NCBI GenBank assembly: GCA_964534195.1
Contig: CAZHQX010000001.1
Location: forward strand, 30,474-94,473
DNA length: 64,000 nt
From: an uncultured Oscillospiraceae bacterium
Lineage (GTDB): Bacteria; Bacillota; Clostridia; Saccharofermentanales; UBA5734
Direction: 5' to 3'
Shown: piece after piece, positions 16,759 to 63,574 of the stretch
How the letters are laid out: each line of letters begins with the position of its first letter
How positions within the stretch are numbered: the first letter of the stretch is position 1
Position numbers and translations under genes: made by a program
Notes under the pieces: model-generated
What the model was told of the DNA's origin: nothing
Database searches by the model: none
What the model saw: the letters and a program-made list of their open reading frames with translations, nothing else

Positions 16759-17076
16759 ATGGCTATGTCTTTGGAAGCAGCGATTACGGTACCGGTCTGC
16801 ATTATCACTTTCAGTTTAGCGCTGAGTCAGGCTGTTCCAGCTTACATACAAGCAAATACAGCGTCAGCTCTGTCTGCTGAAGCTGTGAAGGTCAGATGTG
16901 CGAACAATTCGATATTTGAGGATATAAGTGTTGAGTATCGCAGTTCGTATATGACTGCTGTGTCAACCAGTCCTGATGGTATTATTGATCTTTATCGTTT
17001 GGGTAAGGATATTCTCCGGCCGCTGGGAGATTTATGCGATAACGAGGTATCGACTGATGAAGAATCGGGCAAATAA
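16759..17076 (+). CDS. TadE-like pseudopilin-type small membrane protein (hypothetical)
   Basis: The N-terminus 'MAMSLEAAITVPVCIITFSLAL' fits the TadE-domain pattern (xxxxE-A-A-x-x-x-P plus a hydrophobic helix). ATG follows GGGGGTG. Confidence 0.5.
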   Translation: MAMSLEAAITVPVCIITFSLALSQAVPAYIQANTASALSAEAVKVRCANNSIFEDISVEYRSSYMTAVSTSPDGIIDLYRLGKDILRPLGDLCDNEVSTDEESGK

Positions 17077-18694
17077 ACAAAACTCTATAGATAAATACTC
17101 TTTTAACAGGAGACGAGGAGCAGTTACACTATTTCTTTGCTTATTGTTAGGCTCAACATCAACAATACTGTTGATTTGCCTTCAGGCTTCCGTGATTAGA
17201 AGGGATGAAGCCGCAATGATTCGTGCAGGACGTGCTGCTGCTGAGAGCTGCCTGGCAGCATATGACATTGATTTGTTGGAGGACTATGGTATTTGGGCAG
17301 TAGAGAGTGGCAATATTACAAGCGCCGCATGCGACAATCTTTTAATAGATCAGATAAACGGTCCGCAGATCAACATAAGCGCCGCAAATGACGCACTTGA
17401 TAATGAGTTGCTTTCTGCGCAGATTGCTTCATATATGAAAATAAGAGCTCCAGCTATTTGGATTGAAAAAATAACTGCAGCACTAATGTCTGTCAGTGCG
17501 CCTTCACTTGATTCTGGAACTGAGATTGTGCCTGTCAGAACAGGCAGCTCAACATCTGAAACCCCTATTAGTAAGTCTTATGGCTTATACAGAAGCGATA
17601 TATTTTCGGCTCCACTTAAACCTGATCTTAACACATTGAAGGATATCGATATGGACGATATTATGGATTTTCAAATGAAACTTCAGGAGTATATGTTTAA
17701 GTGTATTCCGTACAATCTCGCGGTTTCAGCAGTCAATAGCTGTCTTGACTGGATATTTTCACCAATTACTGAACCACTCAAGGATGCAGCAGCCAAGAAG
17801 ATCAGCAGCACCATTGATGATATGATCAAGGATAGACTCCCTGTAGATCCAGTTGATTTTGGAGCTGATGATAGTGATTATACTTCAGGTTCACTACCAG
17901 ATTATTTTGATCCTGCTGACTTGGCTGAGCTGTCCGGCTTGGCAGATCGCTTGCTTAATTCCCCAGCAAAGGCAAGTAGTGTAGCTCTTGCCGAGTATGT
18001 GCTTGCGCTATTTCCATCACAGGTCACTGAAACTATAAATAGGGATACCGGAACAAAGAATAAGATCATCACTCCTGATGGCAGGGCTCATGATAGCCTG
18101 GTCAAACGTTTATCACCGACATCTTCTGAAAAGAGCAACATTAGAAAGAATGAACTTGAAATGATAATAACAGGACTTGATTCTCCAGAGAAAGCAGCTG
18201 ACAGGATGAAAGGAAATCTGATGATGGTAAGATCGATCATCAGAATAATCGAGATTACATCTGATCAGAATAGAATGAACAGTTACCGACCGGCGGCCAA
18301 TATTATGTCTGCTTTGATAACTGCTGCAAGTGCAGGTTCTGTGAACATTGATTCTGAAACTGCTTTGTGGCTTATAGCAGTATCTGAAGCTGTCAAGTCT
18401 GCTGCAGGTGATACAAAACAGCTGATCGATGGTAAATCTGTTGCTTTGTGGACATATAAGCAGCAATCATATATTTATTTCAATTATCACGATTATATGC
18501 GTTTGTTTTTGCTCATAAGCCCTCAAGAAAAAGTACTGACAAACATATCTAAAACGATCCAACAGGCTCTGCCCGGAAATTATTCCAGCTCGCTGGAAAC
18601 AAGAATTTCTTATGGTGATAAGAGTTGCTGTTTTGTATCCTCTTATAGAGTCAATAATTCAGAAATCTTCTTTGAACATGATGAAGTCAGTTGA
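17057..18694 (+). CDS. TadG-like (Flp pilus-assembly TadE/G-like N-terminus) large membrane-anchored protein (hypothetical)
   Basis: 'RRRGAVTLFLCLLLGSTSTILLICLQASVIRRDEAAMIRAGRAAAESCLAAYD' resembles the Pfam Tad (TadE/G-like) N-terminal domain. ATG 17057 follows GAGGT and overlaps the upstream gene by 20 nt. Confidence 0.5.
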   Translation: MKNRANKQNSIDKYSFNRRRGAVTLFLCLLLGSTSTILLICLQASVIRRDEAAMIRAGRAAAESCLAAYDIDLLEDYGIWAVESGNITSAACDNLLIDQINGPQINISAANDALDNELLSAQIASYMKIRAPAIWIEKITAALMSVSAPSLDSGTEIVPVRTGSSTSETPISKSYGLYRSDIFSAPLKPDLNTLKDIDMDDIMDFQMKLQEYMFKCIPYNLAVSAVNSCLDWIFSPITEPLKDAAAKKISSTIDDMIKDRLPVDPVDFGADDSDYTSGSLPDYFDPADLAELSGLADRLLNSPAKASSVALAEYVLALFPSQVTETINRDTGTKNKIITPDGRAHDSLVKRLSPTSSEKSNIRKNELEMIITGLDSPEKAADRMKGNLMMVRSIIRIIEITSDQNRMNSYRPAANIMSALITAASAGSVNIDSETALWLIAVSEAVKSAAGDTKQLIDGKSVALWTYKQQSYIYFNYHDYMRLFLLISPQEKVLTNISKTIQQALPGNYSSSLETRISYGDKSCCFVSSYRVNNSEIFFEHDEVS

Positions 18695-19700
18695 AATCGA
18701 TCATACATATAAACTTGAGGTTGGATCCAAGTGTGGATCAATAGCACTTGAGGCTGCTATTTCAATATCACTTATGTTGCTTGTAATATTCTTTATGCTG
18801 ATGGCGATCATTGCATCACAGCTAGAAGCTGCCATGGGAGCTTCACTTGATAATACAGCAGCCGAAATCAGTTTGGTTATACCAATTGCTGATTTGATAA
18901 TAGAAGCAAGTGAACCGGCTCAAGAAATTCTTGCTGAGTTGAAAGATATAGATCATCAGCTCTCTGATGATCCAATTATCAGCCTTCTTTATGATGGTCA
19001 TGTCACAGATTTGTTGTCATCTGTGCTTTTGGGTGAGTTGTTAGAAAGACGTTGTAATTTCTGGCTGCATGATGCCTCAAGTGGACAGAAGCTCTATCTG
19101 CATCTGCTATGCGACAAGCATATCGAAATGATCTGGCATGAGGATGAGAACCATCTGATACTAGAGGCTGACTTCAAAATCAAAACTGTATTTGGAAACT
19201 TAGAGCGTACAGTCAGGTCGATCGTGCCGCTCTGGACTGGCAAAAGCAGAGCTGTTGAGAATAGTGAAGACGGGCCGAATGTCTGGGATCTTGACAATTT
19301 TAGCAGGGGTATTGCCCTAAGGGAGCATTTTGGTGCGGAATTACCGCTGAATTACCCTGTAATAGCATCATTCAAGGATAATTCGGCTTGCGCAATAAGA
19401 AGTATGGATCTTACCGCAAAATCATATCAGGATAATAACAGAGTAATAAAAGTTGTTGCCGGCGAAATCAACCGACTTGCCGATTTTAGTGGTTATAAAG
19501 GGTCAGCTAAGATGCCACGTATCGATAATGACATGATATCTAAGCGTAAGCTTATGTTAGTTATACCATCAAACAGCCCAGACAAATTCGAGAATCAGAT
19601 TTTGCCGGAGCTGATAATGCTTGCAGAATCAAGGTCTGTGGATCTTGAGGTGATTCGATATCTAGACAGTGATAGGAAGCAAGCTGAACTTGTATCTTAA
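18678..19700 (+). CDS. TadE-like pseudopilin-type protein with a C-terminal globular domain (hypothetical)
   Basis: 'KCG/SIALEAAISISLMLLVIFFML' has a G at -1 and E at +5, like a prepilin-peptidase site, followed by a hydrophobic helix. It overlaps the upstream gene by 17 nt. An alternative start is at 18612. Confidence 0.5.
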   Translation: MMKSVEIDHTYKLEVGSKCGSIALEAAISISLMLLVIFFMLMAIIASQLEAAMGASLDNTAAEISLVIPIADLIIEASEPAQEILAELKDIDHQLSDDPIISLLYDGHVTDLLSSVLLGELLERRCNFWLHDASSGQKLYLHLLCDKHIEMIWHEDENHLILEADFKIKTVFGNLERTVRSIVPLWTGKSRAVENSEDGPNVWDLDNFSRGIALREHFGAELPLNYPVIASFKDNSACAIRSMDLTAKSYQDNNRVIKVVAGEINRLADFSGYKGSAKMPRIDNDMISKRKLMLVIPSNSPDKFENQILPELIMLAESRSVDLEVIRYLDSDRKQAELVS

Positions 19701-26599: not shown

Positions 26600-26674
26600 G
26601 CCGCTGTGGCTCAGGGGTAGAGCAATTCACTCGTAATGAATAGGTCGTGAGTTCAATTCTCACCAGCGGCTCCA
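26600..26674 (+). tRNA. tRNA-Thr (anticodon CGU), CCA encoded
   Basis: Manual cloverleaf: acceptor GCCGCTG/CAGCGGC, D stem GCTC/GAGC, anticodon stem ATTCA/TGAAT with loop CTCGTAA, T stem GTGAG/CTCAC with loop TTCAATT. 75 nt. Confidence 0.95.
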
Positions 26675-27222: not shown

Positions 27223-27762
27223 ATGGACTATGCTGTGCTGCTATATTTCGATGAAAATGCGGAGAGCTTGATAGATAAATGGACACAAGACTTGGTCAAT
27301 CTAGGACTAAATAGTAGATTTGCTGAAATAGATATGCGGCCTCATTTGACTCTGGCAGAGTTTGATCTGACTGATCTGGGAAGAGTCGAACAGCTCCTAA
27401 AAGAGTTCGCTGATCGACAACAGCCTGTAGATCTGCGCTTTTCCAGCCTTGGTGTGTTCCCGGGGGAGAACGCGGTTTTGTTTCTTAACCCTGTTGTGTC
27501 GGGGCGGCTGGTTGAGCTGCATCAGGATCTAAACAGATTGCTTGAGATATGCTGTAATGAATTTTCTCCTCTGTACACAGAAGAAAACTGGGTGCCTCAC
27601 TGCACATTGGCTTTGGATTACAACAATGATCATCTTGATCAGGCTATGCGCTACCTTAGTGATCGTTTTTTGCCAATTGATACAAAAGCCGTATCAATTG
27701 TTCTCTATGGCTGCTGTCCTTACCATGAAATGATGGTTATTCCGCTAAATAATCAAGTCTAA
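27223..27762 (+). CDS. 2H phosphoesterase superfamily protein (LigT / 2'-5' RNA ligase-like)
   Basis: Two HxTx motifs at the expected spacing: 'RPHLTLAEF' and 'VPHCTLAL'. Confidence 0.7.
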   Translation: MDYAVLLYFDENAESLIDKWTQDLVNLGLNSRFAEIDMRPHLTLAEFDLTDLGRVEQLLKEFADRQQPVDLRFSSLGVFPGENAVLFLNPVVSGRLVELHQDLNRLLEICCNEFSPLYTEENWVPHCTLALDYNNDHLDQAMRYLSDRFLPIDTKAVSIVLYGCCPYHEMMVIPLNNQV

Positions 27763-27845: not shown

Positions 27846-30800
27846 ATGCAGGTGTATTACCACATGGTTCAAAACAACATAAAAACTGATGAGATAATAA
27901 ATATTCAAACTTCTCCAAGAGAGCTGGTGATGGCTGATAAGATCGATCTGCCTAAGGACGCCGTTCTTAAAATGGGACTAGATGTTGGTTCCACCACAGT
28001 TAAGATCGTTCTGATTCATGAAGATCGGATTTTGTATCAGCAATATAGAAGGCATAACGCTGACAGCATCGGCGAGCTTCAGAAGGCTTTTGCCGAGGTG
28101 GCTGAACTTTATCCCGATGCGAGCGTAAGCATCAGTATAACCGGTTCAGGTGGATTAAGTGTAGCTAAATGGCTTGAACTTAGCTTCGTTCAAGAGGTTA
28201 TTGCTGAAACTGAGGCGATTCGCGTATACGATCCGGAAGCTGATGTTGTAATTGAGCTTGGCGGTGAAGATGCGAAGATCACTTATATGAAACCTGTGCC
28301 GGAGCAGAGAATGAATGGAACCTGCGCTGGCGGAACCGGCGCATTTATCGATCAGATGGCATCGCTGCTCCAGACCGACGCAGGTGGGCTTAATGAGCTT
28401 GCTGCCAAGTACAAGAGATTGTATCCAATAGCGTCCAGATGCGGTGTTTTTGCAAAAAGCGATCTGCAGCCATTGATCAATGAGGGCGCGGCCAGAGAAG
28501 ATTTGGCGGCTTCGGTTCTTCAGTCGGTCGTCAATCAGACGATAGCCGGTCTGGCCTGTGGTCGTCCAATCAAAGGCAACGTTATTTTTTTGGGTGGTCC
28601 GCTGCACTTTTTGTCTGAGCTGCGCAGAGCCTATGAGAGAACACTTACAGAAAACGTGGAAAGCTTCAAAAATCCGCCTTTTGCCCAGCTGTATGTAGCT
28701 GTTGGAGCGGCATTGCTTGCAGATAATGAGCCTTTGCCGCTGAGCGAAATTCTGAACAGATTCAAAACTAACCGCAAGCTTGATCATGATATCGGCAGAA
28801 TCAGACCATTATTCGCTGATGATAATGAAAAGAGAAACTTTTTCGAAAGACATGATAAGGCGTCTGTTGAGCTGATGGATATAGCGACGGCAGAGGGTCC
28901 TTGTTATCTAGGTATTGACGCTGGCAGTACAACAACAAAGGCTGTGCTTATAGATAATTCAGGTGAGTTGATTTTTACATATTATGCAGGCAACAAGGGA
29001 AACCCGATCACCAGTGCTGTGAAAATACTGCGTAAGATCTATGAACAGCTGCCTGCTTCGGCTTATATAGCCAGATCATGTGTTACTGGATATGGCGAGC
29101 ATCTGATCAAAGCCGCTCTCGGAATTGAGGAAGGCGAGATCGAGACAATGGCCCACTATAAATCTGCAGAGTTCTTCAGCCCTGGCGTTGATTTTATCAT
29201 CGATATTGGCGGTCAGGACATGAAGTGTATGCGCGTGAGAGATGGTATTATTGACAGCATAATGGTCAACGAAGCTTGCTCATCAGGCTGTGGTTCATTC
29301 ATTCAGACCTTTGCTGAAACCTTGAATATGGACGCTCATACCTTCTCGCTTGAGGCTTTGGCTTCAGAAAATCCTGTAGATCTTGGCACACGCTGCACTG
29401 TTTTCATGAACTCAAGAGTTAAGCAGGCTCAGAAGGAAGGCGCCACTGTTGGTGATATTTCCGCAGGCTTGTCTTATTCCGTAGTTAGAAATGCATTGTA
29501 CAAGGTTATCAAGATCAAGGATCCAGAGGCGCTTGGCAATAAGGTTGTCGTACAGGGAGGAACCTTCCTGAATGACGCAATTCTAAGATGCTTCGAGCTT
29601 GTTGCAGGCAGAGAAGTTATAAGACCTAATATAGCGGGATTAATGGGTGCTTTTGGCGCGGCCTTGATCGCAAAAGAGCGATTTGAGAATCAACCGGGCA
29701 GCCTCATAAGCTCAGAAAACCTTGAGGGCTTCACAGTAGATACAGAATTGACTCATTGTAAGCTCTGTACCAATCACTGTCAGCTGACGATCTCAAGCTT
29801 CAGCAATGGTGAACGTTTTGTTTCAGGCAATCGTTGCGAGCGCGGCGCAGGTGTCAGCAGCCCCACTGCTGATCTGCCTGATTTATTTGACTATAAGTAC
29901 AAAAGACTGTTCAGATACAAGCCATTGTCCTTGGAAGCGGCTCAGCGCGGGACGTTGGGTCTGCCTCGTGCTCTTAATATGTACGAGAATTATCCTTTTT
30001 GGTTTACGCTCCTGACCAGTCTTGGCTTCCGTGTCATTATTTCCGGTCAGTCTAATCATAAGCTTTTTGAAAAAGGAATGGACAGTATCCCGTCTGAGAG
30101 TGTTTGCTATCCTGCCAAACTGGCTCATGGACATATAGCCGATCTGATCAGCAAAGGAATCAAGACAATTTTCTATCCGGACCTGCCATATGAACAAAAA
30201 GAAGTTGAGGCAGCAAATAATCATTACAATTGTCCGATAGTTGCTTCATATCCTGAAGTTATCAAAAATAATGTTGAGGATATCAGAGAGCATTCCATTA
30301 AGTTTATGAATCCATTTCTGCCTCTGGAAAATAGAGAAAAACTGGCAGTCCGGCTGGTTGAAGTTTTTGCTGATTATAATGTCAGTTTGAAAGAAGTAAA
30401 AACCGCGGTTGAAGCTGCATTTGCCGAGGATGCCAAGTTCAAGCAGGATATACGTGATAAGGGTACTGAGATACTTAAATATCTTGAAGAAACAGGCAAA
30501 AAAGGAGTTGTATTGGCTGGCAGACCGTATCATGTTGATCCTGAGATCCATCATGGTATACCTAAAATGATCAACAGTCTGGGACTGGCTGTGTTGACTG
30601 AGGATGCAATAATTCAGCCAGGTCTTCTGGAACGGCCGATTCGCATTGTTGATCAGTGGGCTTATCATTCCAGATTATATGAGGCTGCGGCCGTTGTGGC
30701 TATCAGAGATGATCTAGAGCTTGTTCAGCTAAACTCATTTGGTTGCGGACTAGATGCTGTTACAACTGATCAGGTACAGGAGATACTTGAAGCGCAGGGT

Positions 30801-32207
30801 AAGATATATACAGTTCTGAAAATCGATGAGGTCAGCAATTTGGGTGCCGCCAGAATCAGAATGCGTTCACTCAAGGTTGCTATGCAAGAGCGCGAGAAGG
30901 GCAAAAACTTCAGTACCAGGAAGAAGAAGCCATATACATTGGAACGAATACCATTTACAAAGGAAATGAAGCAGAGGCACACTATTCTGGCTCCGCAAAT
31001 GTCGCCGATACATTTCCGCTTCGTCGAAAGTGTCCTCAATAACCATGGATATAACACGAAAGTTTTGGAAAAAACAACAGCTGAGGACATAGAGACTGGT
31101 TTGAAATATGTTAATAATGATGCGTGTTATCCCTCGATAATTGTTGTAGGACAACTGGTCAATGCGTTTATCAATGGTGGCTATGATCCTGACAACTGCT
31201 CAGTATTCATAACCCAGACCGGGGGTGGCTGTCGTGCCACTAATTATGTCGCTTTTCTCAGGAAAGCTCTTAAGGATGCTGGTTTCCCACAAGTTCCTGT
31301 TGTTGCACTGTCTGCGACAGGAATAGAGAACAACCCGGGATTCAAGTTTACGCTTAATCTTCTCCATCAATGCGTTCAGGCTCTGGTGTTGGGCGATTTA
31401 CTGCAGACAGTATTGTTGCGAGTAAGGCCTTATGAGGCAGAGGCTGACAGCGCCCATAAGCTGTATTTGCGATGGGATCAGGCAATTAGAGAGTTCTTCG
31501 AACAGGATGGTTTCTCTGAATCGCTTGGCCGGCGCCTGCGCTATGGCCAGATAATTGATATGGTGGTTGATGAATTCGACAAACTGCCGCTGATTGAGTC
31601 AGAGCGCAAACCAAGAGTAGGACTGGTTGGAGAAATACTGGTAAAGTTCCATCCTGATGCCAATAACCATGCAGTTGGCGTTATAGAGTCTGAAGGCTGT
31701 GAGGCTGTAATGCCAGGGCTTCTGGATTTCTTCCTCTATACGATCTATAACTCGCAATGGAAATATGAAAATCTTGGAACAAGTGCCAAGGGCGCTTACA
31801 TTTCGAAGGTATTGATCAGATTGATTGAGGGATATCGGGCGAAAATGCGTAAGGTTCTGAATGCGACAAATGGCAAATTTGAAGCTCCTGTACCGATAGC
31901 AGAACTGGGCCGCAAGGCCGAAGGTGTTTTGTCATTAGGTAATATAAGTGGTGAAGGCTGGTTCTTAACGGCAGAAATGATTGAACTGATCGAGAGTGGT
32001 GTGCCTAATATCATATGTGCGCAGCCATTCGCCTGTCTGCCTAATCATGTAACGGGAAAAGGCATGATCAAGGAGCTGCGCAGACAGTTTCCACAGTCAA
32101 ATATCGTTCCGATCGATTATGATCCCGGCGCCAGTGAAGTCAATCAGCTTAACAGAATTAAGCTGATGCTCTCAACAGCCCTGCATCAGCACAGCAGAAA
32201 AATTTAA
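27846..32207 (+). CDS. large fused BadF/BadG/BcrA/BcrD-type double ATPase (2-hydroxyacyl-CoA dehydratase activase-related) protein
   Basis: Two acetate/sugar-kinase-fold ATPase modules ('[14 protein letters not shown]', '[15 protein letters not shown]'), each with a cluster-ligand segment ('[14 protein letters not shown]', '[13 protein letters not shown]'). A Cys-rich '[10 protein letters not shown]...GNRCERG' segment and a long C-terminal domain follow. The start is uncertain (27846 or ATG 27930). Confidence 0.85.
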
Positions 32208-33691
32208 CCGATCATTTTGCTGAAACCGTCTACCCATTTGCTGTTGCTGACCGCGAACGTATAATTAATTACAACGATATCATTAATATTATTACCCTGG
32301 ACAAAGGCTGGCAGATCCATGCTTATCGAGCGTGGGTCTGCCACATAAATATTCTCATAATGACTGGCCAAATAAGGCACGAAGGCGTTGCCATAGGATT
32401 CCTTGATAACAATTACGCTACGCCCGTTTTTTGTTGAAGTATTGAAGTGGGCCAGAGGATGATCACCTTCAATAAAAGCAAGATATTGGTTCTTCGTATT
32501 TGCTGATTTCTTAATAAGCTCAATACTGCGGCCGTTTTGCATTGTGGAATCCTGATAAGCCATTCCTGTAACGTCAACTGGTGGTTCATAATAGTTGACT
32601 GTATCTGGAGTAGCGGCCAAAACACTGCTCTGAGTATATCTGTACAAGCTTCCAAGGAAACCTCCTTCGATACTGCCATGTGCAAGTTCGTCAAGGGACA
32701 AGGGCTCAAAACCAGCGGCAGACGCAAATGCGCGATAGCCGTAATAGGCTCCTAGAGCTGTCCAGTGGTGGTCGCTGCGAAAATATATATAATCCTGCCA
32801 GTTGGCTGCGAGCTCGCTGTAGGCGTCTACAGAACGCACTGCGGGCGATAAGCGCGAATAGGTGTTATCTATAGCGACCGCCTGTGAGCTGCTGAGTGAA
32901 TGATATTTCTCTGGAGAGTAAAACTCGATAGCTGTTGGTGCCAAAAGGTTATAGACCTGAGCTGACTCTGTTTTTGCTGCCAGTCTGTTAATTAATTCAG
33001 CATAATGATCTGATTTGCTCTGATTGAAACCATAAATTTCCATCGCAACATTATTTACAACTATTACAGCTGAGTAGTCGGCGACTTCACCCTCGACTCC
33101 AGGTGGAGGTACTGGCTCGGTTGGCGCATCCGTAGTTTCTTCCGTCGTTTCCTTGGTAGTTGTTTCAACCGTTGCAGAATCGGTATTTCCAGTTGCAGGA
33201 TCCGTCGTTTCTGCCATAGATTCATCAGTTGTACTTTCAGATGGATCTGGACTTGATTGAGATGTCTCAAGAGGTTTTGATTCTGTACTTTCAGATGGAT
33301 CTGGACTTGATTCGGATGTCTCAAGAGGTTGGGCTTCTGTAGTTTCTGTTATCTCTTCGTCAATCAGGATCTCACCGCTGCCCAAATCATTAGCCGGGCC
33401 CTGAATGAGAGTAACCTGATCATCATCAAACGAGAAGCTCATAAGCTCTTTTGCTGAGTTGTTGACTTTTATAAGGGTATCACGAAAAGGAAACTGATCT
33501 GCAAACCATTTCTCGGTGTCATGGCCGAAGCTGCCATTAATAAAGCTGTTCCAGCTGAAGGAAGGCCGCTGCTGCAAAGCACGATTCTCCTGAGTGGATA
33601 TGGCCTGATCAGGCCAGACCAGCTTGAAAATTGCCAGTATAAATATCGGCATAAGGAACATTATGACAATTTTCTGTTGATGTTTGTTCAC
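32204..33691 (-). CDS. DHHW family protein (AlgJ/AlgX-like putative O-acyl transfer partner), membrane-anchored
   Basis: N-terminal TM segment, acidic S/T/E/P linker and the signature '[17 protein letters not shown]'. Its stop overlaps the stop of the convergent 27846 gene by 4 nt. Confidence 0.8.
33231..33338 (-). repeat. in-frame 2 x 54-nt tandem repeat inside the DHHW linker
   Basis: Copies at 33231-33284 and 33285-33338 are identical at 49 of 54 nt. They encode an 18-aa '(K/Q)PLETS(Q/E)SSPDPSEST' unit. Confidence 0.9.
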
Positions 33692-33721
33692 CTGATAACC
33701 TCCAGATCTAAGTATATCTTT

Positions 33722-35134
33722 TTAGAAGCGGAAATATAAGAAAGGGTTGAAGCTCGATCCTGCCAGAGCGGCTGTAGCCAAAAACAATATTCCAATATTA
33801 ATGACCACAACAAGAACTGTGTAGGCAGGATGATATGTTTTAACTGCGTGGAGCCTGCCGATCCTTGCGGCTGTTTTCTTCAGAAGTGGTGTAGTAAGAA
33901 CGATCGCGAGCAATAGGAAGAGAAATTCGTTTTGCAGCAGGATCTGTGCTCGGACATCAAAGGCGATGCTTCTGACAAAAAACAATTTGGACAACATCAT
34001 GCGGATATCTCCAACTGTTGTGAAATAGAAGAAGACCCACCCGAAAACAACTATCAACAGTGCGTATATGTGAGAAAACACTGCCGGAAGCTTTTCAAGT
34101 ACTTTAGATAAAAATAGTTTTTCCAGTGTCAGAAACACGAAAAAATATAGTCCCCAGAGTACAAAATTCCAACTTGCTCCATGCCAGAGTCCTGTTAATG
34201 CCCAGACGATAAACATGTTTCTGATCTGATAGCGTCTGTTGCCGCCAAGTGGTATGTAGAGATAATCACGGAAGAAAGTGCTAAGAGAGATATGCCATCT
34301 GCGCCAGAAGTCGGTGATAGAATCAGCGATATACGGGTAGTTGAAATTTTCTTTGAAACGGAAGCCAAACATACTGCCCAGACCTATAGCCATATCTGAG
34401 TATCCGGAAAAATCAAAATATATCTGCAAAGAAAAGGCAATAATTCCGATCCAGGCTTCTGAAGAACTTAATGCCGGTAATCTTGAGCCAATCGTTTGAC
34501 TAACGATCTCACCGGCATGATTTGCGATCAGAACCTTTTTTGCTAAGCCGGTAAGAAATCTGGCAATGCCACCGCTGAAGTTCTCAAGTGTTATTTTTCT
34601 TTTTGTGATCTGCTCGGCAATATCATCATAGCGAACGATAGGACCAGCTATCAGCTGTGGGAATAATGCTAAATAGAGCATAAAGTCAAAATATGATTTC
34701 TGAACCTTGGTTTTACCTCTGTAAAGATCAATAGCATAGGTCAAGGCTTGAAATGTATAAAAAGAAATACCAATTGGTAGTGAGAAGACTGGAACTTTCA
34801 AGTCGATGAAGGGAAGCAGATTTAAATTTGAGATGACAAATCCGCTGTATTTGAAGACTGCAAGAGAACTTAATGAAGCCGTGATGGTTATGATAAGAAA
34901 AAGACGTGATTTGAATTTGCTTGTACGGTACCTATCGATTCCTAAGCCCGCTGAATACACAAGCAGACCTGTCAAAATCATCAATGCGACCCAAACTGGT
35001 TCTCCCCAGGCATAAAAAGCCAGTGAAAATAACAGCAATACTCTATTTCTGGTTTTTACGCTTCCCGACAGCAGATAAACCAAAAGACAAAGCGGAAGGA
35101 AGCCATATAGAAAGACAAGGCTGGAAAAAACCAT
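33722..35134 (-). CDS. MBOAT family O-acyltransferase (AlgI/DltB-like)
   Basis: Polytopic membrane protein. 'FWRRWHISLSTFFRDYLYIPLGGNR' and 'WHGASWNF' include the MBOAT catalytic His region. Confidence 0.9.
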   Translation of the reverse strand: MVFSSLVFLYGFLPLCLLVYLLSGSVKTRNRVLLLFSLAFYAWGEPVWVALMILTGLLVYSAGLGIDRYRTSKFKSRLFLIITITASLSSLAVFKYSGFVISNLNLLPFIDLKVPVFSLPIGISFYTFQALTYAIDLYRGKTKVQKSYFDFMLYLALFPQLIAGPIVRYDDIAEQITKRKITLENFSGGIARFLTGLAKKVLIANHAGEIVSQTIGSRLPALSSSEAWIGIIAFSLQIYFDFSGYSDMAIGLGSMFGFRFKENFNYPYIADSITDFWRRWHISLSTFFRDYLYIPLGGNRRYQIRNMFIVWALTGLWHGASWNFVLWGLYFFVFLTLEKLFLSKVLEKLPAVFSHIYALLIVVFGWVFFYFTTVGDIRMMLSKLFFVRSIAFDVRAQILLQNEFLFLLLAIVLTTPLLKKTAARIGRLHAVKTYHPAYTVLVVVINIGILFLATAALAGSSFNPFLYFRF

Positions 35135-36003: not shown

Positions 36004-36597
36004 ATGAGAGAACAGCTTGAACGCAGTGAGAGCAAATTGCTTAAACAGGCAAAAGCAGGCGATAGCGAGGCTTTTGCCAATATTGTCGAGCTATATCTGC
36101 CGAAAATATTTAGCTTATGCGTCAAATTGACCGGGAATAAGGAAGACGCTGAAGATTGTGTTCAGGAATCGTTTATCAAAGTTTGGACGTCTTTGGGAGA
36201 TTTTCGGGAGAACTCTTCGTTATATACGTGGATATATAGAATCGCTGCAAACACTTGTAATGATTATTTGCGCAAAAAGAGCAGACATCCTGTTCTGTCA
36301 CTCGAAGGAGATGGTACAGAATCTGATGATGCTCCCTTGGCGCATATTAAGGATGAACGTCCTTTGCCTGATGAGCAGCTGGTAAAAGCAGAGTCGGCCG
36401 AGCATGTCAGAATGCTGCTGTTGGAGCTGCCGGATAACATGAGGGAAGTACTGATTCTAAGGGATCTGCAGCAGCTAAGCTACAGAGAAATATCCAAGGC
36501 TATAGATGTAACAGAAGGAACTGTAAAATCCAGATTGTTCAGAGCCAGACATGAAATGATGAAACTTCTGGAGAAGAGGGAACTATTTGAGCCTTAG
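36004..36597 (+). CDS. ECF-type RNA polymerase sigma-70 family factor
   Basis: Region 2 'YTWIYRIAANTCNDYLRK' and region 4 HTH 'LSYREISKAIDVTEGTVKSRLFRARHEM'. Confidence 0.9.
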   Translation: MREQLERSESKLLKQAKAGDSEAFANIVELYLPKIFSLCVKLTGNKEDAEDCVQESFIKVWTSLGDFRENSSLYTWIYRIAANTCNDYLRKKSRHPVLSLEGDGTESDDAPLAHIKDERPLPDEQLVKAESAEHVRMLLLELPDNMREVLILRDLQQLSYREISKAIDVTEGTVKSRLFRARHEMMKLLEKRELFEP

Positions 36598-36640
36598 TCT
36601 CGTCTAAGCAATAGGTGAGAGCCGGAAAGGAGCTGAAGCT

Positions 36641-37825
36641 ATGAATAGGAAATGCGAACAATTTCAAAATAGAATTCCTGAATATATAGACGGAAGCCTG
36701 CCGGCAAACAAGAAGAACGAGCTGGAGAGTCATCTGGCTGGCTGTAAGGCCTGCAGAAATGAATTTGATAAGCAAAGTGAATGGTTGGCAAGCAGTTTTG
36801 TAAATCAGGAAGAGGCCGATCTGACTCAGGAAGATAAAAATCGATTGCAAGATCAGATAATGACAGCCATTCGTTCCAATGAACAGTCACATAGAGCCGC
36901 TGCTTATATCAATGATTATAAGAAGAAGGCAGATATTCAAGACCAAACATTTATGGAATCTTCCGATAACCTGCCTATCAATTCTATTAGCAACAAGGGC
37001 AATAGAAATGATCGCAAATTCTGGAGAAGTCTGCCAGTTCTATCCGGCTATGCAGCGGTACTTCTGCTGGTTTCAGTAACCGTATTTCTAGTAATGGATA
37101 TGAATTCCCCATCTAAAAGAGAAAGCTTACCAGATAAGGCAGAACGTGCCGTGGTAAATGAAGAAGCAATGATGCCTGCAGCGGTAGATGAGGATATGAA
37201 TTTGGATGTCTACTCAGATGACTCCGCTACGCTGCCGATGATCAGTTCTGAGGCAATGGCAGTTGAGGGTGTTGATGAAACTGCTGCTGCAGCAGTAATG
37301 GAAGATGACGGTTCTCAGGAAGTTGATGCTGGTATGGTTGATAAATGGAAGAGCTTCAACGGACGATTAGGTGATCTTCCTTTGGATCCGGAGCTGTTTT
37401 CAGAGAGCGAAGCTTTTGAGGCTCAAGGTGTTTTCAACTCTTCGAAGGCTCTGCGTATATTGACTACTCAAAGTGTTGAACAAACAGCTGAAACTGAACA
37501 AGCTCCTGACCAACCTGAGGATGCCGGCTCGGAAATTACTTATGAAACGAGTGCTCAAACCTCGACAAACGTATCACATACAGCTGTCGATAAGGTTTTG
37601 ATTTTAACAGCCTGGAATTCCTGGGATATAGTTGACGCGGCGGATAATCTTAAGCATCAGTTGCAGGAAAAAGAGTCAGAATATGATATTATTATACTTG
37701 ACGACTCAATAGGCATTACCAAGATCGAGGAGATGATTGGCTCCGAGGAGGCAAAGGCCTGGCAAGAACAGATCAAAGAGCAGAAGCTTGAAGATCTGGT
37801 CTGGCTGGCATTAATAGCAAAATGA
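36641..37825 (+). CDS. anti-sigma factor (zf-HC2), single-pass membrane protein
   Basis: N-terminal 'C...H(x3)C(x2)C' motif ('HLAGCKACRNEF'), a central TM segment ('LPVLSGYAAVLLLVSVTVFLV') and an acidic extracytoplasmic domain. Confidence 0.75.
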   Translation: MNRKCEQFQNRIPEYIDGSLPANKKNELESHLAGCKACRNEFDKQSEWLASSFVNQEEADLTQEDKNRLQDQIMTAIRSNEQSHRAAAYINDYKKKADIQDQTFMESSDNLPINSISNKGNRNDRKFWRSLPVLSGYAAVLLLVSVTVFLVMDMNSPSKRESLPDKAERAVVNEEAMMPAAVDEDMNLDVYSDDSATLPMISSEAMAVEGVDETAAAAVMEDDGSQEVDAGMVDKWKSFNGRLGDLPLDPELFSESEAFEAQGVFNSSKALRILTTQSVEQTAETEQAPDQPEDAGSEITYETSAQTSTNVSHTAVDKVLILTAWNSWDIVDAADNLKHQLQEKESEYDIIILDDSIGITKIEEMIGSEEAKAWQEQIKEQKLEDLVWLALIAK

Positions 37826-52664: not shown

Positions 52665-54903
<2,239 letters not shown>

Positions 54904-55019: not shown

Positions 55020-55343
55020 ATGAATATGACTAATATTGTTTTAACAACTGGTGCCACTGCAGGTGGTATGGAGAGCATACTGGGTCTGGTGCTGCCTTTG
55101 GCACTTATGTTCGGCCTGATGTACTTCCTGTTGATCCGTCCACAGAGAAAGAAAGAGAAGAAGCTGCGTGAGCAGATCAACTCGATGGTAGTTGGAGATA
55201 GTGTTGTCACTATTGGCGGTGTGGTTGGTCGCGTTGTCAATATCAAGGACGATGAGGTAACGGTTTCAACCAGTGTTGCTAATACTTTGGTGACATTTAA
55301 GAAATCCGCAGTAAATACTGTTGTAAAGCCCGTATCAGAATAA
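55020..55343 (+). CDS. yajC: preprotein translocase subunit YajC
   Basis: Single TM segment followed by 'LLIRPQRKKEKK' and 'GDSVVTIGGVVGRV'. Confidence 0.85.
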   Translation: MNMTNIVLTTGATAGGMESILGLVLPLALMFGLMYFLLIRPQRKKEKKLREQINSMVVGDSVVTIGGVVGRVVNIKDDEVTVSTSVANTLVTFKKSAVNTVVKPVSE

Positions 55344-55402
55344 ATTACAACCTGCCTGCAGGTCGATAATAACTATGTAATAAATATCAGGGGGACACAA
55401 AC

Positions 55403-55549
55403 ATGAAACACATTCAGACTATTAGTGGAGTTTGCATTAAACCTGCTGAGCATTCCGCAGCTTGCGGTGAGTGCCAGACATCCTGCCAGTCAGCCTGTAA
55501 AACCAGCTGTACTGTTGCAAATCAGCCATGTGAGCAGATACAACGCTGA
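55403..55549 (+). CDS. scfA: SCIFF (six-cysteine) ranthipeptide precursor peptide, 48 aa, absent from the ORF track
   Basis: Translation: MKHIQTISGVCIKPAEHSAACGECQTSCQSACKTSCTVANQPCEQIQR. The core 'CGECQTSCQSACKTSCTV.NQ.CE' is the SCIFF hallmark. RBS AGGGGGA lies 7 nt upstream, and the maturase gene is next. Confidence 0.9.
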   Translation: MKHIQTISGVCIKPAEHSAACGECQTSCQSACKTSCTVANQPCEQIQR

Positions 55550-55591
55550 GCATTGTTCTGGATTGCTTTTCCTAATGAGTGATAACTGACA

Positions 55592-55627
55592 AAATAGTGA
55601 AAAGCCTGATCGGGCTTTTCACTATTT
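55592..55627 (+). promoter_or_regulatory. intercistronic stem-loop between the precursor and maturase genes
   Basis: 15-bp perfect stem (AAATAGTGAAAAGCC / GGCTTTTCACTATTT) with a 6-nt loop. Only a short U-tract (TTT) follows. Confidence 0.7.
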
Positions 55628-55656
55628 GCGTATATGGAGGAATAGAATTGGTTCAT

Positions 55657-57009
55657 ATGTTTAAAATGCTGGGTGATCACCTGGTATTCGATTCAGAAAG
55701 TGGTGCTCTGCACCGTATAGATGAGATGGCAGCTGAGGTTATTGAGTTATACCAAAATGCTGGCGGCAGGAGGCCTGCCCAGCCAGAGCTTGAGGCGCTG
55801 GCTCTTAACTATGGCACAGATATATTTGAATTAGCCGATGAAATAGATACATTGATCGATCGTGAAGAGCTTTTCTGTCCATCCAGAGAAGTTACGGTTG
55901 AACAGCTATATCCAGATCGGCCACGTATCAAGTCGATGTGCCTGCATCTTTGTCACGACTGTAACCTTCGTTGTGAGTATTGCTTCGCCGGAACAGGTGA
56001 TTTTGGAACAGGGCACAGATCAATGCTTTCGGAAGAAGTTGGACGCAAAGCAATAGATTTCCTGATCGAAGCGTCAGGACCACGCAAGCATTTGGATATC
56101 GATTTTTTTGGCGGTGAACCTCTAATGAACTGGCCTGTGGTTGTCGCTCTTGTTAAGTATTGTCGCCAGCGCATGGCTGAAACTGAAAAGATCATCAGAC
56201 TTACGATCACTACAAACGCCACCCTGCTTGATCAGAATAAAATTGATTTTATTAATGATAATTTCGAAAACTGTGTTCTCAGCATTGATGGGCGAAAAGA
56301 AGTGCATGATCGTATGAGGCCTGATGCCGGTAGACATGGTTCTCATGACCGAGTCGTCAATAATATCAGGAAATTCCTTGCTGTAAGAGGTAACGGCCAG
56401 TATTATTTGCGCGGTACTTATACCAGACATAACCTGGATTTCGCTGAAGATGTTCTTCATTTAGCAGAACTGGGTGATCAGGTGTCCATGGAACCGGTAG
56501 TTGCGCCTCCTGGAAGTGGTTACGAGATAAGGCAAGAGGACTTGCCAGCGATAGAAGCTGAGTATGAGAGATTAGCGCAGATCATAGATCAACGAAGGCA
56601 GGAGGGCAATCCCTTCAACTTCTTCCACTTTGTAATGGATCTGAGCAAGGGTCCTTGTGCGTTTAAGCGGCTCAAGGGCTGTGGTGTTGGCATGGAATAC
56701 TGTGCTGTCACGCCTGAGGGTGATATTTATCCATGTCATCAGTTTGTTGGCGAAGAGCAGTTCAAAATGGGCAGTGTAATGGACGATCCGATCACGCTTG
56801 ATCCGACAGTTCAGAAGCCTTTCCGCCAGCTCATGGTACCTGATAAACCAGAATGTCATGACTGCTGGGCCAGATTTTTCTGCAGCGGCGGCTGTGCGGC
56901 CAATAGCTACCATGTAAGCGGAAGTATAACCGGATCTGATAAAATTGGCTGTGCAATGCAGAAGAAGCGGCTTGAATGCGCTTTGTGGCTTAAGAGCCGC
57001 CAGGCTTGA
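55657..57009 (+). CDS. scfB: SCIFF radical SAM/SPASM thioether-forming maturase
   Basis: Radical-SAM 'CNLRCEYC' and a C-terminal SPASM domain 'CGVGMEYCAV...YPCHQF...CHDCWARFFCSGGCAANSY'. The start is ATG 55657 or TTG 55648, after GGAGG at 55636-55640. The track start 55579 lies upstream of the hairpin. Confidence 0.9.
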   Translation: MFKMLGDHLVFDSESGALHRIDEMAAEVIELYQNAGGRRPAQPELEALALNYGTDIFELADEIDTLIDREELFCPSREVTVEQLYPDRPRIKSMCLHLCHDCNLRCEYCFAGTGDFGTGHRSMLSEEVGRKAIDFLIEASGPRKHLDIDFFGGEPLMNWPVVVALVKYCRQRMAETEKIIRLTITTNATLLDQNKIDFINDNFENCVLSIDGRKEVHDRMRPDAGRHGSHDRVVNNIRKFLAVRGNGQYYLRGTYTRHNLDFAEDVLHLAELGDQVSMEPVVAPPGSGYEIRQEDLPAIEAEYERLAQIIDQRRQEGNPFNFFHFVMDLSKGPCAFKRLKGCGVGMEYCAVTPEGDIYPCHQFVGEEQFKMGSVMDDPITLDPTVQKPFRQLMVPDKPECHDCWARFFCSGGCAANSYHVSGSITGSDKIGCAMQKKRLECALWLKSRQA

Positions 57010-57220: not shown

Positions 57221-59056
57221 TTGATTCCTGACAATGTGATTGAGGAAATTAAAAATCGCAATGAACTTGTTTCAGTCGTAGAGCAGTACGTAACTCTCGA
57301 TCGCAAGAGCTCGGCGAATTATTTCGGTCTCTGCCCCTTTCACAGGGAAGATACCCCTTCTTTCAGCGTTTCGCCTTCTAAACAGATTTTTTACTGCTTT
57401 GGCTGTCATAAGGGTGGAAATGTCATTAATTTTATCAAAGAGATCGAGCATGTGTCGTATCCTCAGGCCCTGCAGATTTTGGCAGAGCGAGCTGGAATAG
57501 CTTTGCCGGAGCCGGATGATGAGGGCTGGCGCAAGCGCAGTGAGCTGAGCAAAAGGCTGCATGAGACGATGCTGGAGGCTGCACGCTGGTTTTATATGCA
57601 GCTGATCGGCGGACAAGGTAAGCCGGCTCAGGATTATCTCAGAAAACGCGAAATTTCCCCGGCTACAGCTAAGAGATTTGGAATAGGATATGCTCCGGAC
57701 AATTGGGATGCTCTTCTGAAGCATTTGCGAGCCAAGGGCTTTTCCGAGGAGGAAATTGATGTCAGCGGCTTATTTAAGAGAACCAAGCAGGGCAACCTGA
57801 TCGATCTGTTTCGCGGCAGACTTATGTTTCCGATATTCGATGTGCTTGGTAAGGTTGTGGCTTTTGGCGGACGCGTGCTCGATGACAGCCTGCCCAAATA
57901 TATAAATTCGCCTGAAACGCCAATATATACCAAGGGCCGCCATCTATACGGACTCAATCTGGCAAAAGCCAGCAGAGCTGACAATTTGATCATAGTTGAG
58001 GGTTATCTTGATGTTATAGCAATGCATCAGGCTGGTATAGATCAGGCTGTAGCTGCTCTTGGAACAGCGCTTACTGAACAACAGGCGATACTTCTGCGCA
58101 AATATACGGAGAAAATAATAATTGGTTTTGATGCCGATGCCGCTGGTCAGAAGGCCGCATTGCGTGGATTGGAAATTCTGGCAGGCAAAGATATGGATGT
58201 TTCGGTTCTTATGGTTCCTGATGGCAAGGATCCTGACGAGTATATCAGAAAAAATGGGCCGGAGAGATTTCATGCACTGGTAGAGAAATCAATGCCTCTG
58301 CTTGATTATAGATTGTATTGTGCCCGCAGAGACAGTCAAACAGAAAAAGGACTTGATATTATTGAATATCAGGACAGAGCCTGTGACATTTTATCTGAGC
58401 TTGATAATGGCATAGTAAGGGAATTATATGCTGATAAGTTAGCATCTGAGCTCCATGCAAGCAAGGATATCGTAATAAGAGAAATTGAGCGGCGTAAGCT
58501 GGTGCCTGCGGCAGATAAGAATAAGGATCTGCTTAAGCAGCAGCTGCGGCAGAGACAGTTGGATCTAACCAGGAAACAAGAGGAAAACAAGGATCAGATA
58601 ACAAAAGAAGAAATATATTTGATCGTACTTCTGGCCGCCTATCCTGATTGCTGGCGCGAAATGAAGGATAAACCTAGTCCGAATGATTTTTCAGCTGGTA
58701 CGATGAGGAAGCTGTTTGTTGAGGCAATGCCGCTGCTGGCTGAGGCCAGATTAGATTCATCAAGATTGCTTGATCTGGCCGGTGACACAGTTATAAGAGG
58801 CAGAGAGCTCAAAGAGCTTCTAGCCAAGGCTAGTATGCAGATAGATGATATTTTAGGCAGCCAGAGCGAGGTCAAAGCAGCCCGACTATGGATGCTGAGA
58901 ACAAGAATGAAGCAGCTGTTAATAAATAAGAAAAAGCTTGAGCAGAGCCTAACTGAAGAAAACGATGAGCAAAGAACAAGATCGCTGCGCGGTGATCTGC
59001 TGAGATTATCTCAAATTTACGCACAGCTTAAGGAACAATATAATACCGAGTTTTGA
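57221..59056 (+). CDS. dnaG: DNA primase
   Basis: Zinc ribbon 'CPFHREDTPSFSV...CFGCHKGGNVI' and Toprim 'IIVEGYLDVIA'. TTG start. Confidence 0.95.
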   Translation: MIPDNVIEEIKNRNELVSVVEQYVTLDRKSSANYFGLCPFHREDTPSFSVSPSKQIFYCFGCHKGGNVINFIKEIEHVSYPQALQILAERAGIALPEPDDEGWRKRSELSKRLHETMLEAARWFYMQLIGGQGKPAQDYLRKREISPATAKRFGIGYAPDNWDALLKHLRAKGFSEEEIDVSGLFKRTKQGNLIDLFRGRLMFPIFDVLGKVVAFGGRVLDDSLPKYINSPETPIYTKGRHLYGLNLAKASRADNLIIVEGYLDVIAMHQAGIDQAVAALGTALTEQQAILLRKYTEKIIIGFDADAAGQKAALRGLEILAGKDMDVSVLMVPDGKDPDEYIRKNGPERFHALVEKSMPLLDYRLYCARRDSQTEKGLDIIEYQDRACDILSELDNGIVRELYADKLASELHASKDIVIREIERRKLVPAADKNKDLLKQQLRQRQLDLTRKQEENKDQITKEEIYLIVLLAAYPDCWREMKDKPSPNDFSAGTMRKLFVEAMPLLAEARLDSSRLLDLAGDTVIRGRELKELLAKASMQIDDILGSQSEVKAARLWMLRTRMKQLLINKKKLEQSLTEENDEQRTRSLRGDLLRLSQIYAQLKEQYNTEF

Positions 59057-61223: not shown

Positions 61224-62033
61224 ATGCCGACTATAGCTGAAATAGTTAGAAAAATCGAAGCGATGGCTCCGCCAGCACTGGCTGAGAGCTGGGATCCTGT
61301 CGGCCTGCAAACTGGCAGTATGGATACAGAGATCATTTCTGTACTGCTCTGCCTGGATATTACAGGCTCGGCTATCGCCAGAGCCAAGGCAAACAGAGCT
61401 GAACTTATAATAACTCATCATCCGCTTATATTTTCGCCTGTTAAAACAGTAAGAGCAGATATTCCTGAACAGCAGCTGCTTTATGATCTGATCAGACACA
61501 AAATCGCGGTTTACAGCGCGCATACCAATCTGGACGCAGCACCAGGCGGAGTTGCCGACTGTTTGGCACAGACTTTGAACCTTGATGCAGATACATGGCA
61601 GACAGTATTTCCTCAGAAAAATGATCTGACTGGATTTGCTGAGGCCGGGCACGGTCGATATGCTGATCTTTATCAGCCAATCAAGCTCTCGAGATTAAGA
61701 AAAATAGCAATAGAGCAGCTAGGCAGTCCTGGCTGCAGGATCAACACTGATAGTGATCCCATGGTTTCCAGGGTCGCAGTGTTTCCTGGATCATTTTCAG
61801 AGGAATGGATATCTGATCTCGATCTATTGGATATTGATACTGTCATAACCGGGGAGGCTAAGCATAATATAGCAATCGCTCTTGCCAACAGGGGCATCGC
61901 AGTGATCGATGCAGGACATGATGTGACTGAGCGAGTAGTTCTTAAGCCACTTGCTGAGAGATTAAAATCTGAATTCCCGCAAATATCCTTTACCGTTGAC
62001 ATGGGCTTGGATTATAATAAGGTGGCTTTCTGA
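61224..62033 (+). CDS. Nif3-like dinuclear metal centre protein (GTP cyclohydrolase 1 type 2 homologue)
   Basis: 'WDPVGLQTG', 'IITHHPLIF', 'AHTNLD' and 'GEAKHN' motifs. Confidence 0.85.
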   Translation: MPTIAEIVRKIEAMAPPALAESWDPVGLQTGSMDTEIISVLLCLDITGSAIARAKANRAELIITHHPLIFSPVKTVRADIPEQQLLYDLIRHKIAVYSAHTNLDAAPGGVADCLAQTLNLDADTWQTVFPQKNDLTGFAEAGHGRYADLYQPIKLSRLRKIAIEQLGSPGCRINTDSDPMVSRVAVFPGSFSEEWISDLDLLDIDTVITGEAKHNIAIALANRGIAVIDAGHDVTERVVLKPLAERLKSEFPQISFTVDMGLDYNKVAF

Positions 62034-62368
62034 GCTGATTGGACAGCCGCAGGCATAAGGCGAAAGCCTGTGCGTGAGGAAAGTCCGGGCTCCATAGGGC
62101 TGGGTGCCGGGTAGTTCCCGGTGAAGGCGACTTCAAGGATAGTGCAACAGAAATATACCGCCGGCAGCAGCCGGTAAGGGTGGAAAGGCGAGGTAAGAGC
62201 TCACCAGCGGTCTGGCGACAGTCCGGCTCTGTAAACCCCACCTGGAGCAACACCGTGGAGGGACAATAGTGTGGCCCGCATGTCCCGGGGAGGTGGCTTG
62301 AGCCATTCAGAAATGATTGGCCTAGATAGATGGCTGTCCACGACAGGACCCGGCTTATAGATCAGCTC
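62032..62368 (+). ncRNA. rnpB: RNase P RNA, bacterial type A
   Basis: 'GAGGAAAGTCCGGGCTCCATAGGGC', 'GGTAAGGGTGGAAAGG..GGTAAGAGCTCACC', 'GTAAACCCCACCTGGAGCAA' and 'CTAGATAGATGGCTGTCCACGACAGGACCCGGCTTAT' align with the E. coli M1 RNA conserved blocks. P1 is GAGCTGAT / ATCAGCTC. Confidence 0.9.
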
Positions 62369-62398
62369 AGAAAGCATATATTTATTATGGAGGACATC

Positions 62399-63574
62399 AT
62401 GAAAGCAGAATCCTATTTATCACGCGGTGTTTCGCCGACAAAAGATGATGTTAAGCTAGCGGTAGCAAAACAGTCAAAGGGACTTTTTCCAGGATCCTTT
62501 TGCAAGGTGATCGATGATCCTGCCGGCGATGACAGATGGTGCAGCGCAGTTCATGCAGATGGTGCCGGTACAAAATCTTCGGCAGCCTATCTGATGTACA
62601 AGATTACCGGGGACACCACGTGGTTCAGAGGCATAGCACAGGATTCTCTGGTCATGAATACAGATGATCTGGCCTGCATTGGCGCTGTTGATAATTTTCT
62701 TGTGTCGAACACGATTGGCAGGAACGCACATCGAGTAAATGCTGATTGCCTGGCAGCGATCATTAACGGATATGACAGCTTCATCGAAAAAATGGCTGAG
62801 CATGATGTAAAAATAACGATGACAGGCGGCGAGACAGCCGATGTTGGTGATCTGGTCAGAACTGTTATTTGTGATTCGACGATCGTTGTAAGAATGCAGC
62901 GAGAAAATGTAATTAATGCAGCGGATATCAAGCCTGATCAAGTGATCGTAGGACTTTCTTCATTCGGGCAGACCAGTTATGAGGATAAGGAAAACTCTGG
63001 TATAGGTTCAAACGGTCTGACGGCTGCAAGACATTTGCTTTTGCATTCTGATTATCGTGACCAGTATCCGGAGACTTACGCCGATACGATGCCTGCGGGC
63101 AAAGCGTACTGTGGATTATATCATGTTGAAGATAAGCTGCCTGGCAGTACATTGACAGCGGGAGAAGCAGTTCTGTCGCCAACCAGGACATATTTACCGG
63201 TCATTCGCAGGATCCTTGCTGAATACAGAAGCTCCATCAGCGGAATAATCCATTGTACTGGCGGTGGCCAGGTCAAATGCCGCGATTTTGGACATGGTAT
63301 CAGATATGTAAAAGATAATCTGTTTGAGCGTCCGCCAGTATTTAAGGCAATATTTGAATCCGGTGATGTTAAACAGCATGAGATGTATCAAATTTTCAAT
63401 ATGGGGCATCGTATGGAACTGTATTGTGATCAAGCATCTGCTGAAGCAATTATCGGAATTGCTGCGGAATATAAGCTGGATGCCAGAATTGTCGGTCATA
63501 CCGAGAAGATGACCGGTCAGGATGGCGCCAATCAGGTCATCATAAAGGATCAGGGAGAAGAGTTTGTTTATTGA
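62399..63574 (+). CDS. AIR synthase (PurM)-related protein
   Basis: 'RGVSPTKDDV...KGLFPGSFCKV...HADGAGTKS...IAQDSLVMNTDDLACIGA' resembles the PurM-like family. Start trimmed to ATG 62399 after GGAGGA, because the track start 62330 lies inside rnpB. Confidence 0.7.
   Translation: MKAESYLSRGVSPTKDDVKLAVAKQSKGLFPGSFCKVIDDPAGDDRWCSAVHADGAGTKSSAAYLMYKITGDTTWFRGIAQDSLVMNTDDLACIGAVDNFLVSNTIGRNAHRVNADCLAAIINGYDSFIEKMAEHDVKITMTGGETADVGDLVRTVICDSTIVVRMQRENVINAADIKPDQVIVGLSSFGQTSYEDKENSGIGSNGLTAARHLLLHSDYRDQYPETYADTMPAGKAYCGLYHVEDKLPGSTLTAGEAVLSPTRTYLPVIRRILAEYRSSISGIIHCTGGGQVKCRDFGHGIRYVKDNLFERPPVFKAIFESGDVKQHEMYQIFNMGHRMELYCDQASAEAIIGIAAEYKLDARIVGHTEKMTGQDGANQVIIKDQGEEFVY

Follow-up and report, generated by a model that had tools for sequence, protein, structure and literature searches.

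A standard scfA-scfB SCIFF ranthipeptide gene pair between yajC and dnaG in a Clostridia chromosome

In the window, which is the whole 64-kb stretch of DNA analysed here, a small open reading frame (scfA) is followed on the same strand by the gene of a radical-SAM enzyme (scfB). The coordinates of both genes and of the features around them are listed in Table 1. The scfA frame begins with ATG, consists of 48 codons and a stop codon, and encodes MKHIQTISGVCIKPAEHSAACGECQTSCQSACKTSCTVANQPCEQIQR, which is identical to the peptide quoted in a preliminary description of this DNA.

Table 1. Genes and sequence features at the SCIFF locus, with positions in the window
Feature	Position	Strand	Basis or remark
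yajC	55020..55343	+	TIGR00739, 82.1 bits (cut-off 44.2); 59 nt 5' of scfA
scfA ribosome-binding site, AGGGGGA (purine-rich)	55389..55395	+	7 nt 5' of the ATG; direct sequence reading
scfA, SCIFF precursor	55403..55549	+	TIGR03973 and PF13165 scores; synonymous differences far exceed non-synonymous ones
scfA leader, codons 1-20	55403-55462	+	Extra Cys at residue 11
scfA Cys-rich core, codons 21-48	55463-55546	+	Cys 21, 24, 28, 32, 36 and 43
scfA-scfB spacer hairpin, perfect 16 bp, 4-nt loop	55592..55627	+	Predicted fold; z-score -2.84 for the spacer
scfB ribosome-binding site, GGAGG	55636..55640	+	7 nt 5' of TTG 55648; direct sequence reading
scfB, radical-SAM/SPASM SCIFF maturase, 453 aa, TTG start	55648..57009	+	TIGR03974, Pfam domains, alignment to CteB, gene calls on L001 and L002
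dnaG	57221-59056		3' of scfB

The leader of the scfA peptide opens with the conserved MKHIxTI, and the six cysteines of the core are spaced C-x2-C-x3-C-x3-C-x3-C-x6-C within the 48 residues, as expected of SCIFF peptides (about 45 residues). The peptide scored 67.8 bits with TIGR03973 ("six-cysteine ranthipeptide SCIFF"; cut-off 50), and the match covered positions 1-43 of the 43 positions of the model. In addition, it scored 69 bits with PF13165 (cut-off 27). Its SCIFF relatives in the database amount to 5767 clusters.

The core of the peptide is highly conserved. The six core Cys columns were invariant in an alignment of 36 sequences and also in 81 loci, and the invariant core residues among relatives were C21, C24, C28, C32, K33, T34, S35, C36, N40, Q41 and C43, with T37 nearly invariant. 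For the 24-codon core, we compared the window with 80 related loci of named genomes among the matches listed, and found 960 synonymous versus 132 non-synonymous codon differences, the latter mostly at positions 39 and 42. Furthermore, the Cys codons switch between TGC and TGT from one of these 80 loci to another, whereas the Cys itself is invariant in the protein. Thus, the scfA frame is far beyond chance and is a real gene, and its core is under clear purifying selection. We found no credible second SCIFF or other small Cys-rich ORF in the 64-kb window, the other matches being alternative frames of known genes or lying within scfB. Likewise, no promoter specific to scfA could be established; there was only a weak 9/12 match inside the 3' end of yajC (55290-55319).

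The mechanical ORF of scfB begins at GTG 55579 and ends with the stop codon at position 57009. From the sequence, the start codon of the gene is most likely TTG 55648 rather than GTG 55579. Several lines of evidence speak against the GTG. They are the spacing of the GGAGG motif, the 453-aa product called by gene callers on L001 and L002 (two other short contigs of the same species), and the N-terminal alignment both to CteB, in which MVHMF of ScfB is aligned with MIHKF, and to TIGR03974, which is entered at position 2. With the TTG start, the spacer between the two genes, which lie on the same strand, is 98 nt long, in line with the distance of about 100 nt given in the preliminary description.

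ScfB scored 571.6 bits with TIGR03974 ("thioether cross-link-forming SCIFF peptide maturase"; cut-off 425). The Pfam domains found in it are Radical_SAM (52.9 bits), Fer4_12 and SPASM, and the last of these was matched by both PF13186 (26.8 bits, cut-off 21.5) and TIGR04085 (68.5 bits, cut-off 27). The CX3CX2C motif is formed by Cys105, Cys109 and Cys112, which align with C107, C111 and C114 of CteB. The SPASM region contains nine cysteines (337, 345, 363, 403, 406, 412, 416, 435 and 444), all of them conserved with CteB. The C-terminal SPASM domain thereby has every Cys that in CteB belongs to the auxiliary Fe-S clusters, two of which are expected in a SCIFF maturase. An hmmsearch of the peptide and the enzyme against the SCIFF models had been proposed as a check, and both proteins scored above the curated cut-offs, which bears out the earlier assignments of scfA as a SCIFF precursor and of the downstream CxxxCxxC and SPASM enzyme as its maturase. 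Residues 1-90 of ScfB align to the N-terminal domain of CteB and to positions 2-90 of TIGR03974, and no separate RRE model matched this part of the protein. In their 2017 work on the CteB structure, Grove et al. reportedly identified the N-terminal domain of CteB as an RRE. On the models of related enzymes, ScfB stayed below the cut-offs, with 212 bits for QhpD, and 241 and 257 bits on the models of the other peptide maturases, which include PapB (freyrasin type), nif11-type and sactipeptide enzymes; its score with the mycofactocin maturase model was 81 bits.

The genes queA, tgt and yajC lie 5' of the pair, and dnaG and rpoD lie 3' of it, each scoring above its curated cut-off. The position of the pair between yajC and dnaG had thus been given correctly. 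The 59 nt between yajC and scfA contain no terminator that the scan could find on the + strand, and these two genes may be co-transcribed. As mechanical ORFs, queA (which ends at 53771) and tgt (GTG 53740) overlap at 53740-53771; the 379-aa call on L001 and the model alignment suggest ATG 53764 as the start of tgt, with an 8-base overlap with queA.

To see how far this arrangement is shared, related loci were compared. In 78 of the 80 loci among the matches listed, a ScfB gene lies directly 3' of the SCIFF gene on the same strand and within 800 nt, and one of the exceptions is a truncated contig. Nearly all of these 80 loci are titled Clostridia or Bacillota, and the closest named relatives are MAGs of Clostridiaceae and Clostridiales. 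Of the 69 loci whose upstream sequence was long enough, 23 have yajC within 1.4 kb 5' of scfA, usually with queA and tgt before it; the yajC-side neighbourhood is therefore shared by many Clostridia and is no peculiarity of this genome. In nine loci, mostly of the Lachnospiraceae type, tgt-yajC instead lies 4-5 kb downstream. The order with dnaG-rpoD directly after scfB was found, among the fetched loci, only in L052 (Clostridiales bacterium UBA11385). In the literature searched, there was no paper that deals with both SCIFF and yajC.

The whole window is a leading-strand housekeeping region, with holA, asnS, mreCD, secA, polA, topA, dapAB and other genes. Its GC content is 0.41-0.47 throughout, and no compositional island is seen at the SCIFF genes. 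These housekeeping neighbours and the lack of an island fit a place in the chromosome that is old and has been inherited vertically, and not a bacteriocin cluster that moves between genomes. In addition, we found no dedicated protease, leader peptidase, ABC or other exporter, transporter or immunity gene at the locus, and no partner redox enzyme in the neighbourhood.

Several other features were seen elsewhere in the window. The gene at 14011-14868 (+) encodes a lipoprotein-type family-3 solute-binding protein with swapped halves, an apparent circular permutation (residues 49-166 correspond to profile positions 135-254, and residues 188-283 to positions 24-120). It is followed by genes for an ABC permease (14979-15845) and an ATPase (15832-16560). 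Just 5' of secA there are two overlapping ORFs on the + strand without an NCBIfam name. The one at 16976-18694 has a weak DUF5702 match, and the C-terminal part of the one at 18612-19700 weakly matches (35.9 bits) a restriction-endonuclease-like domain of the CDI-toxin EC869 type. A 1453-aa protein with two matches to acyl-CoA dehydratase activase (BcrAD/BadFG-type ATPase) is encoded at 27846-32207 (+), adjoining a 2'-5' RNA ligase-family gene (27223-27762) and a tRNA (26600-26671). At 32204-35134 (-), there is a pair of genes of the MBOAT (DltB-like) and DHHW/AlgX-like types, and beside this pair, at 36004-37825 (+), an ECF sigma factor is accompanied by a zf-HC2 anti-sigma factor. The RNase P RNA, class A (62031-62373, +; 287.6 bits), starts at the stop codon of a gene of the NIF3 family (61224-62033). 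Since this RNA reaches 44 bases into the mechanical ORF 62330-63574, the real start of that ORF must be further downstream.

The spacer between scfA and scfB contains a predicted hairpin whose 3' arm ends with CUUUUCACUAUUU and is followed by GCGUAU. A simple terminator scan made no call at this hairpin, and its U-tract is weak. An Rfam scan found no known RNA element in the spacer, the only Rfam matches of the window being the RNase P RNA and one tRNA. We also surveyed 73 related loci with a spacer of 50-400 nt. The best 40-nt hairpin of the spacer had a mean dG of -18.8 kcal/mol, versus -8.7 for shuffled spacers and -11.8 for scfB-internal pieces of the same length (Wilcoxon, p ~1e-13 and ~2e-12, respectively). 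A hairpin of -12 kcal/mol or stronger was predicted in 71 of the 73 loci, and a T-rich 3' flank was present in 27 of them. Thus, a strong predicted hairpin between scfA and scfB is a near-universal feature of SCIFF loci. From this family-wide pattern only, we infer that the hairpin of the window may be a leaky terminator or a stabiliser of the mRNA 3' end. Elements that set the ratio of precursor to enzyme are known in other RiPP operons. Besides the window, examples of the hairpin are the spacers of L005, L006, L014, L021, L052, L063 and L065. In part of the family, the stem base is conserved in sequence too (GTGRAARG...CYTTYCAC).

Three residues or segments of the peptide, namely Cys11, Pro42 and the EQIQR tail, had been described as specific to this locus. 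All of them are physically present, but they are common variants of the family. Among the best 120 of the 5767 SCIFF clusters in the database, 29 have Cys11, 17 have Pro42 and 10 have both, while a tail of five residues past the sixth Cys is the modal length (45/120). Furthermore, in an independent set of 80 genome loci among the matches listed, position 42 is the sole hypervariable site of the core, with eight different residues. These counts rule out the three features as locus-specific.

In the same best 120 SCIFF clusters, Ala20, which replaces Gly just before the core, is present in 19 of the 29 peptides with Cys11 versus 4 of the 90 without it. Judged from these sequences, Cys11/Ala20 is a recurrent leader subtype of SCIFF and not a property of this locus; to our knowledge, it has not been described before. 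It could be supposed that SCIFFs with Cys11/Ala20, the present one among them, are a subtype of their own in which the leader Cys is involved in the chemistry, either in a seventh thioether, say, or as a ligand of an auxiliary cluster. The recurrent adjacency of yajC, an accessory gene of the Sec translocon, would on this view have a functional basis, for example that a housekeeping peptide is handled in association with Sec, and would not be mere inherited order. We regard this supposition as quite improbable.

The reaction of the gene pair can be proposed from its homologues. As in CteB/CteA and Tte1186/Tte1186a, the N-terminal domain of ScfB would bind the leader of the scfA peptide. The radical-SAM cluster would cleave SAM, and the 5'-deoxyadenosyl radical so formed would take a hydrogen from a side-chain carbon of the acceptor residue. 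Finally, the thiol of a core Cys would join this carbon, giving a non-alpha thioether. The window peptide has the donor residue Cys32 as well as both candidate acceptors, Thr34 and Thr37. Tte1186 and CteB were each reported to form one thioether, from Cys32 to a Thr (PMC8326336; PMC10114670). The acceptor has been given as Thr37 or Thr34, and the reports disagree on this point and also on further Cys cross-links (PMC8326336). In CteA, the link is at the gamma carbon, which places the product in the ranthipeptide class (PMC8326336; PMC10114670). At the RNA level, the hairpin between scfA and scfB would stop or stabilise most transcripts after scfA, and the precursor would thus be made in excess over the enzyme.

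Since no dedicated protease, exporter or immunity gene is present at the locus, the product is most likely a conserved peptide with a regulatory or signalling function, and not a bacteriocin. A quorum-sensing role of SCIFF is proposed in two reviews (PMC8326336; PMC8102284). As cited there, knock-outs in C. beijerinckii and C. ljungdahlii by Chen et al. 2020 changed sporulation and the expression of agr genes, which was read as quorum sensing; this single study of knock-outs and transcriptomes, as cited in the reviews, is the basis of the signalling role. The preliminary description held that the mature product and its physiological role are poorly understood, and the 2021 review (PMC8326336) bears this out. 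Taken as a whole, with the proposed chemistry, the attenuation by the hairpin and the signalling role included, the explanation of the locus as a standard two-gene SCIFF ranthipeptide cassette in a Clostridia chromosome is very probably right.

Other explanations were weighed against it. The small ORF might be a chance or non-coding frame, and the radical-SAM enzyme an orphan ScfB-like maturase with another substrate. Indeed, NCBIfam has an exception model for ScfB-related orphan maturases (NF040492, "not_ScfB"), and ScfB matches it at 465.1 bits. However, this score is far under the cut-off of 855, while the cut-off of TIGR03974 was passed, and the small ORF itself passed two curated models, has a good ribosome-binding site and is under strong purifying selection. 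The model scores and codon differences refute this explanation, and we leave it practically no chance.

The product itself could be a secreted, sactipeptide-like antimicrobial peptide, that is, a bacteriocin, or it could stay in the cell as a redox, metal-binding or cofactor-like molecule instead of an exported signal, like the PqqA and MftA products of related radical-SAM/SPASM enzymes. Some relatives of ScfB do produce sactipeptides with antimicrobial activity, among them subtilosin, thuricin and ruminococcin C (PMC8326336; PMC10114670). However, the lack of immunity, ABC-exporter, leader-peptidase and other protease genes at the locus argues against a bacteriocin, as does the extreme conservation of the core, which is almost invariant over thousands of clusters from many clostridial lineages. 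The housekeeping synteny of the locus also speaks against it. In addition, a bioRxiv pangenome preprint of 2026 describes the ranthipeptide clusters of clostridial orders as conserved and as present no more than once per species (10.1101/2025.02.12.637840), and a review considers the wide spread of SCIFF in Clostridia contrary to an antimicrobial role (PMC8326336). A bacteriocin is thus very improbable. The missing exporter and protease fit an intracellular product as well, and so do the extreme invariance of the core, the vertically inherited synteny with queA-tgt-yajC and the relation of ScfB to QhpD and to the mycofactocin maturases (212 and 81 bits). Against this stand the quorum-sensing-like effect of the knock-outs, as given in the reviews (PMC8326336; PMC8102284), and the lack of a partner redox enzyme in the neighbourhood, and we consider an intracellular role of this kind unlikely.

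The gene pair is an ordinary and already named member of a well-described family, there is nothing unusual in this copy, and the SCIFF pair is found in almost all Clostridia. The founding paper of the family is said to be that of Haft and Basu in 2011. By now, a crystal structure of the enzyme is available, annotation pipelines run the curated HMMs of the family automatically, and its members in the databases number in the thousands. The questions that matter are those of the whole family, namely the structure of the mature peptide, the number of cross-linked Cys, the removal of the leader and the role in nearly every Clostridium, and this copy gives no special access to them. The useful results of this study are therefore negative: the residues taken as unique proved to be ordinary family variants, and the annotation seemed to be missing as an artefact of a size cut-off. 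The precursor-maturase hairpin across the family and the recurrent Cys11/Ala20 leader subtype are modest by-products.

The label "unannotated" in the preliminary description arose because of the size cut-off of the ORF track on which it was based, and it could not be upheld. Sequences identical to the window peptide and to its 453-aa enzyme are among the NCBI entries of the protein collection. They come from a 103-kb contig, and no name is recorded for them in the collection. Furthermore, the pair NLW10482.1/NLW10483.1 from a Clostridiaceae MAG falls into the same 90%-identity clusters as the window pair; its sequences are at least 90% identical to those of the window, though not the same, and NCBI names them "six-cysteine peptide SCIFF" and "thioether cross-link-forming SCIFF peptide maturase".

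Among the fetched loci, L052 is the closest relative overall and the only one with the full order queA-tgt-yajC-scfA-scfB-dnaG-rpoD. Its proteins are 80% (YajC), 79% (Tgt) and 65% (ScfB) identical to those of the window, and its peptide shares Cys11 and Ala20 with the window peptide. Its spacer hairpin is homologous to that of the window (AAATAGTGGAAAGC..GCTTTTCACTATTTTT), with a clearer T-run after it. However, the L052 peptide differs from that of the window in Lys42, Ser26 and the tail.

The best-known relative is the CteA/CteB pair of Clostridium (Acetivibrio) thermocellum, whose product is thermocellin, and which has the same order of precursor and maturase. CteB (PDB 5WGG, 5WHY) was the best match of ScfB among solved structures, over the full length and with an E value of 2.8e-148. 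The two enzymes are 50.8% identical over 445 aligned residues (5WGG), and all 12 cysteines related to Fe-S clusters are kept. The CteA core shares CGECQTSCQSACKTSC..NQ.CE with the window peptide, including Cys32, Thr34 and Thr37. The window peptide differs from CteA in Cys11, in Ala-Ala instead of Gly-Gly before the core, in Pro42 and in the EQIQR tail, all of which are within the normal variation of the family. More distantly, QhpD, PapB, nif11-type enzymes and sactipeptide synthases such as AlbA resemble ScfB in their architecture and likewise form thioethers by radical chemistry; however, they act on unrelated peptide or protein substrates.
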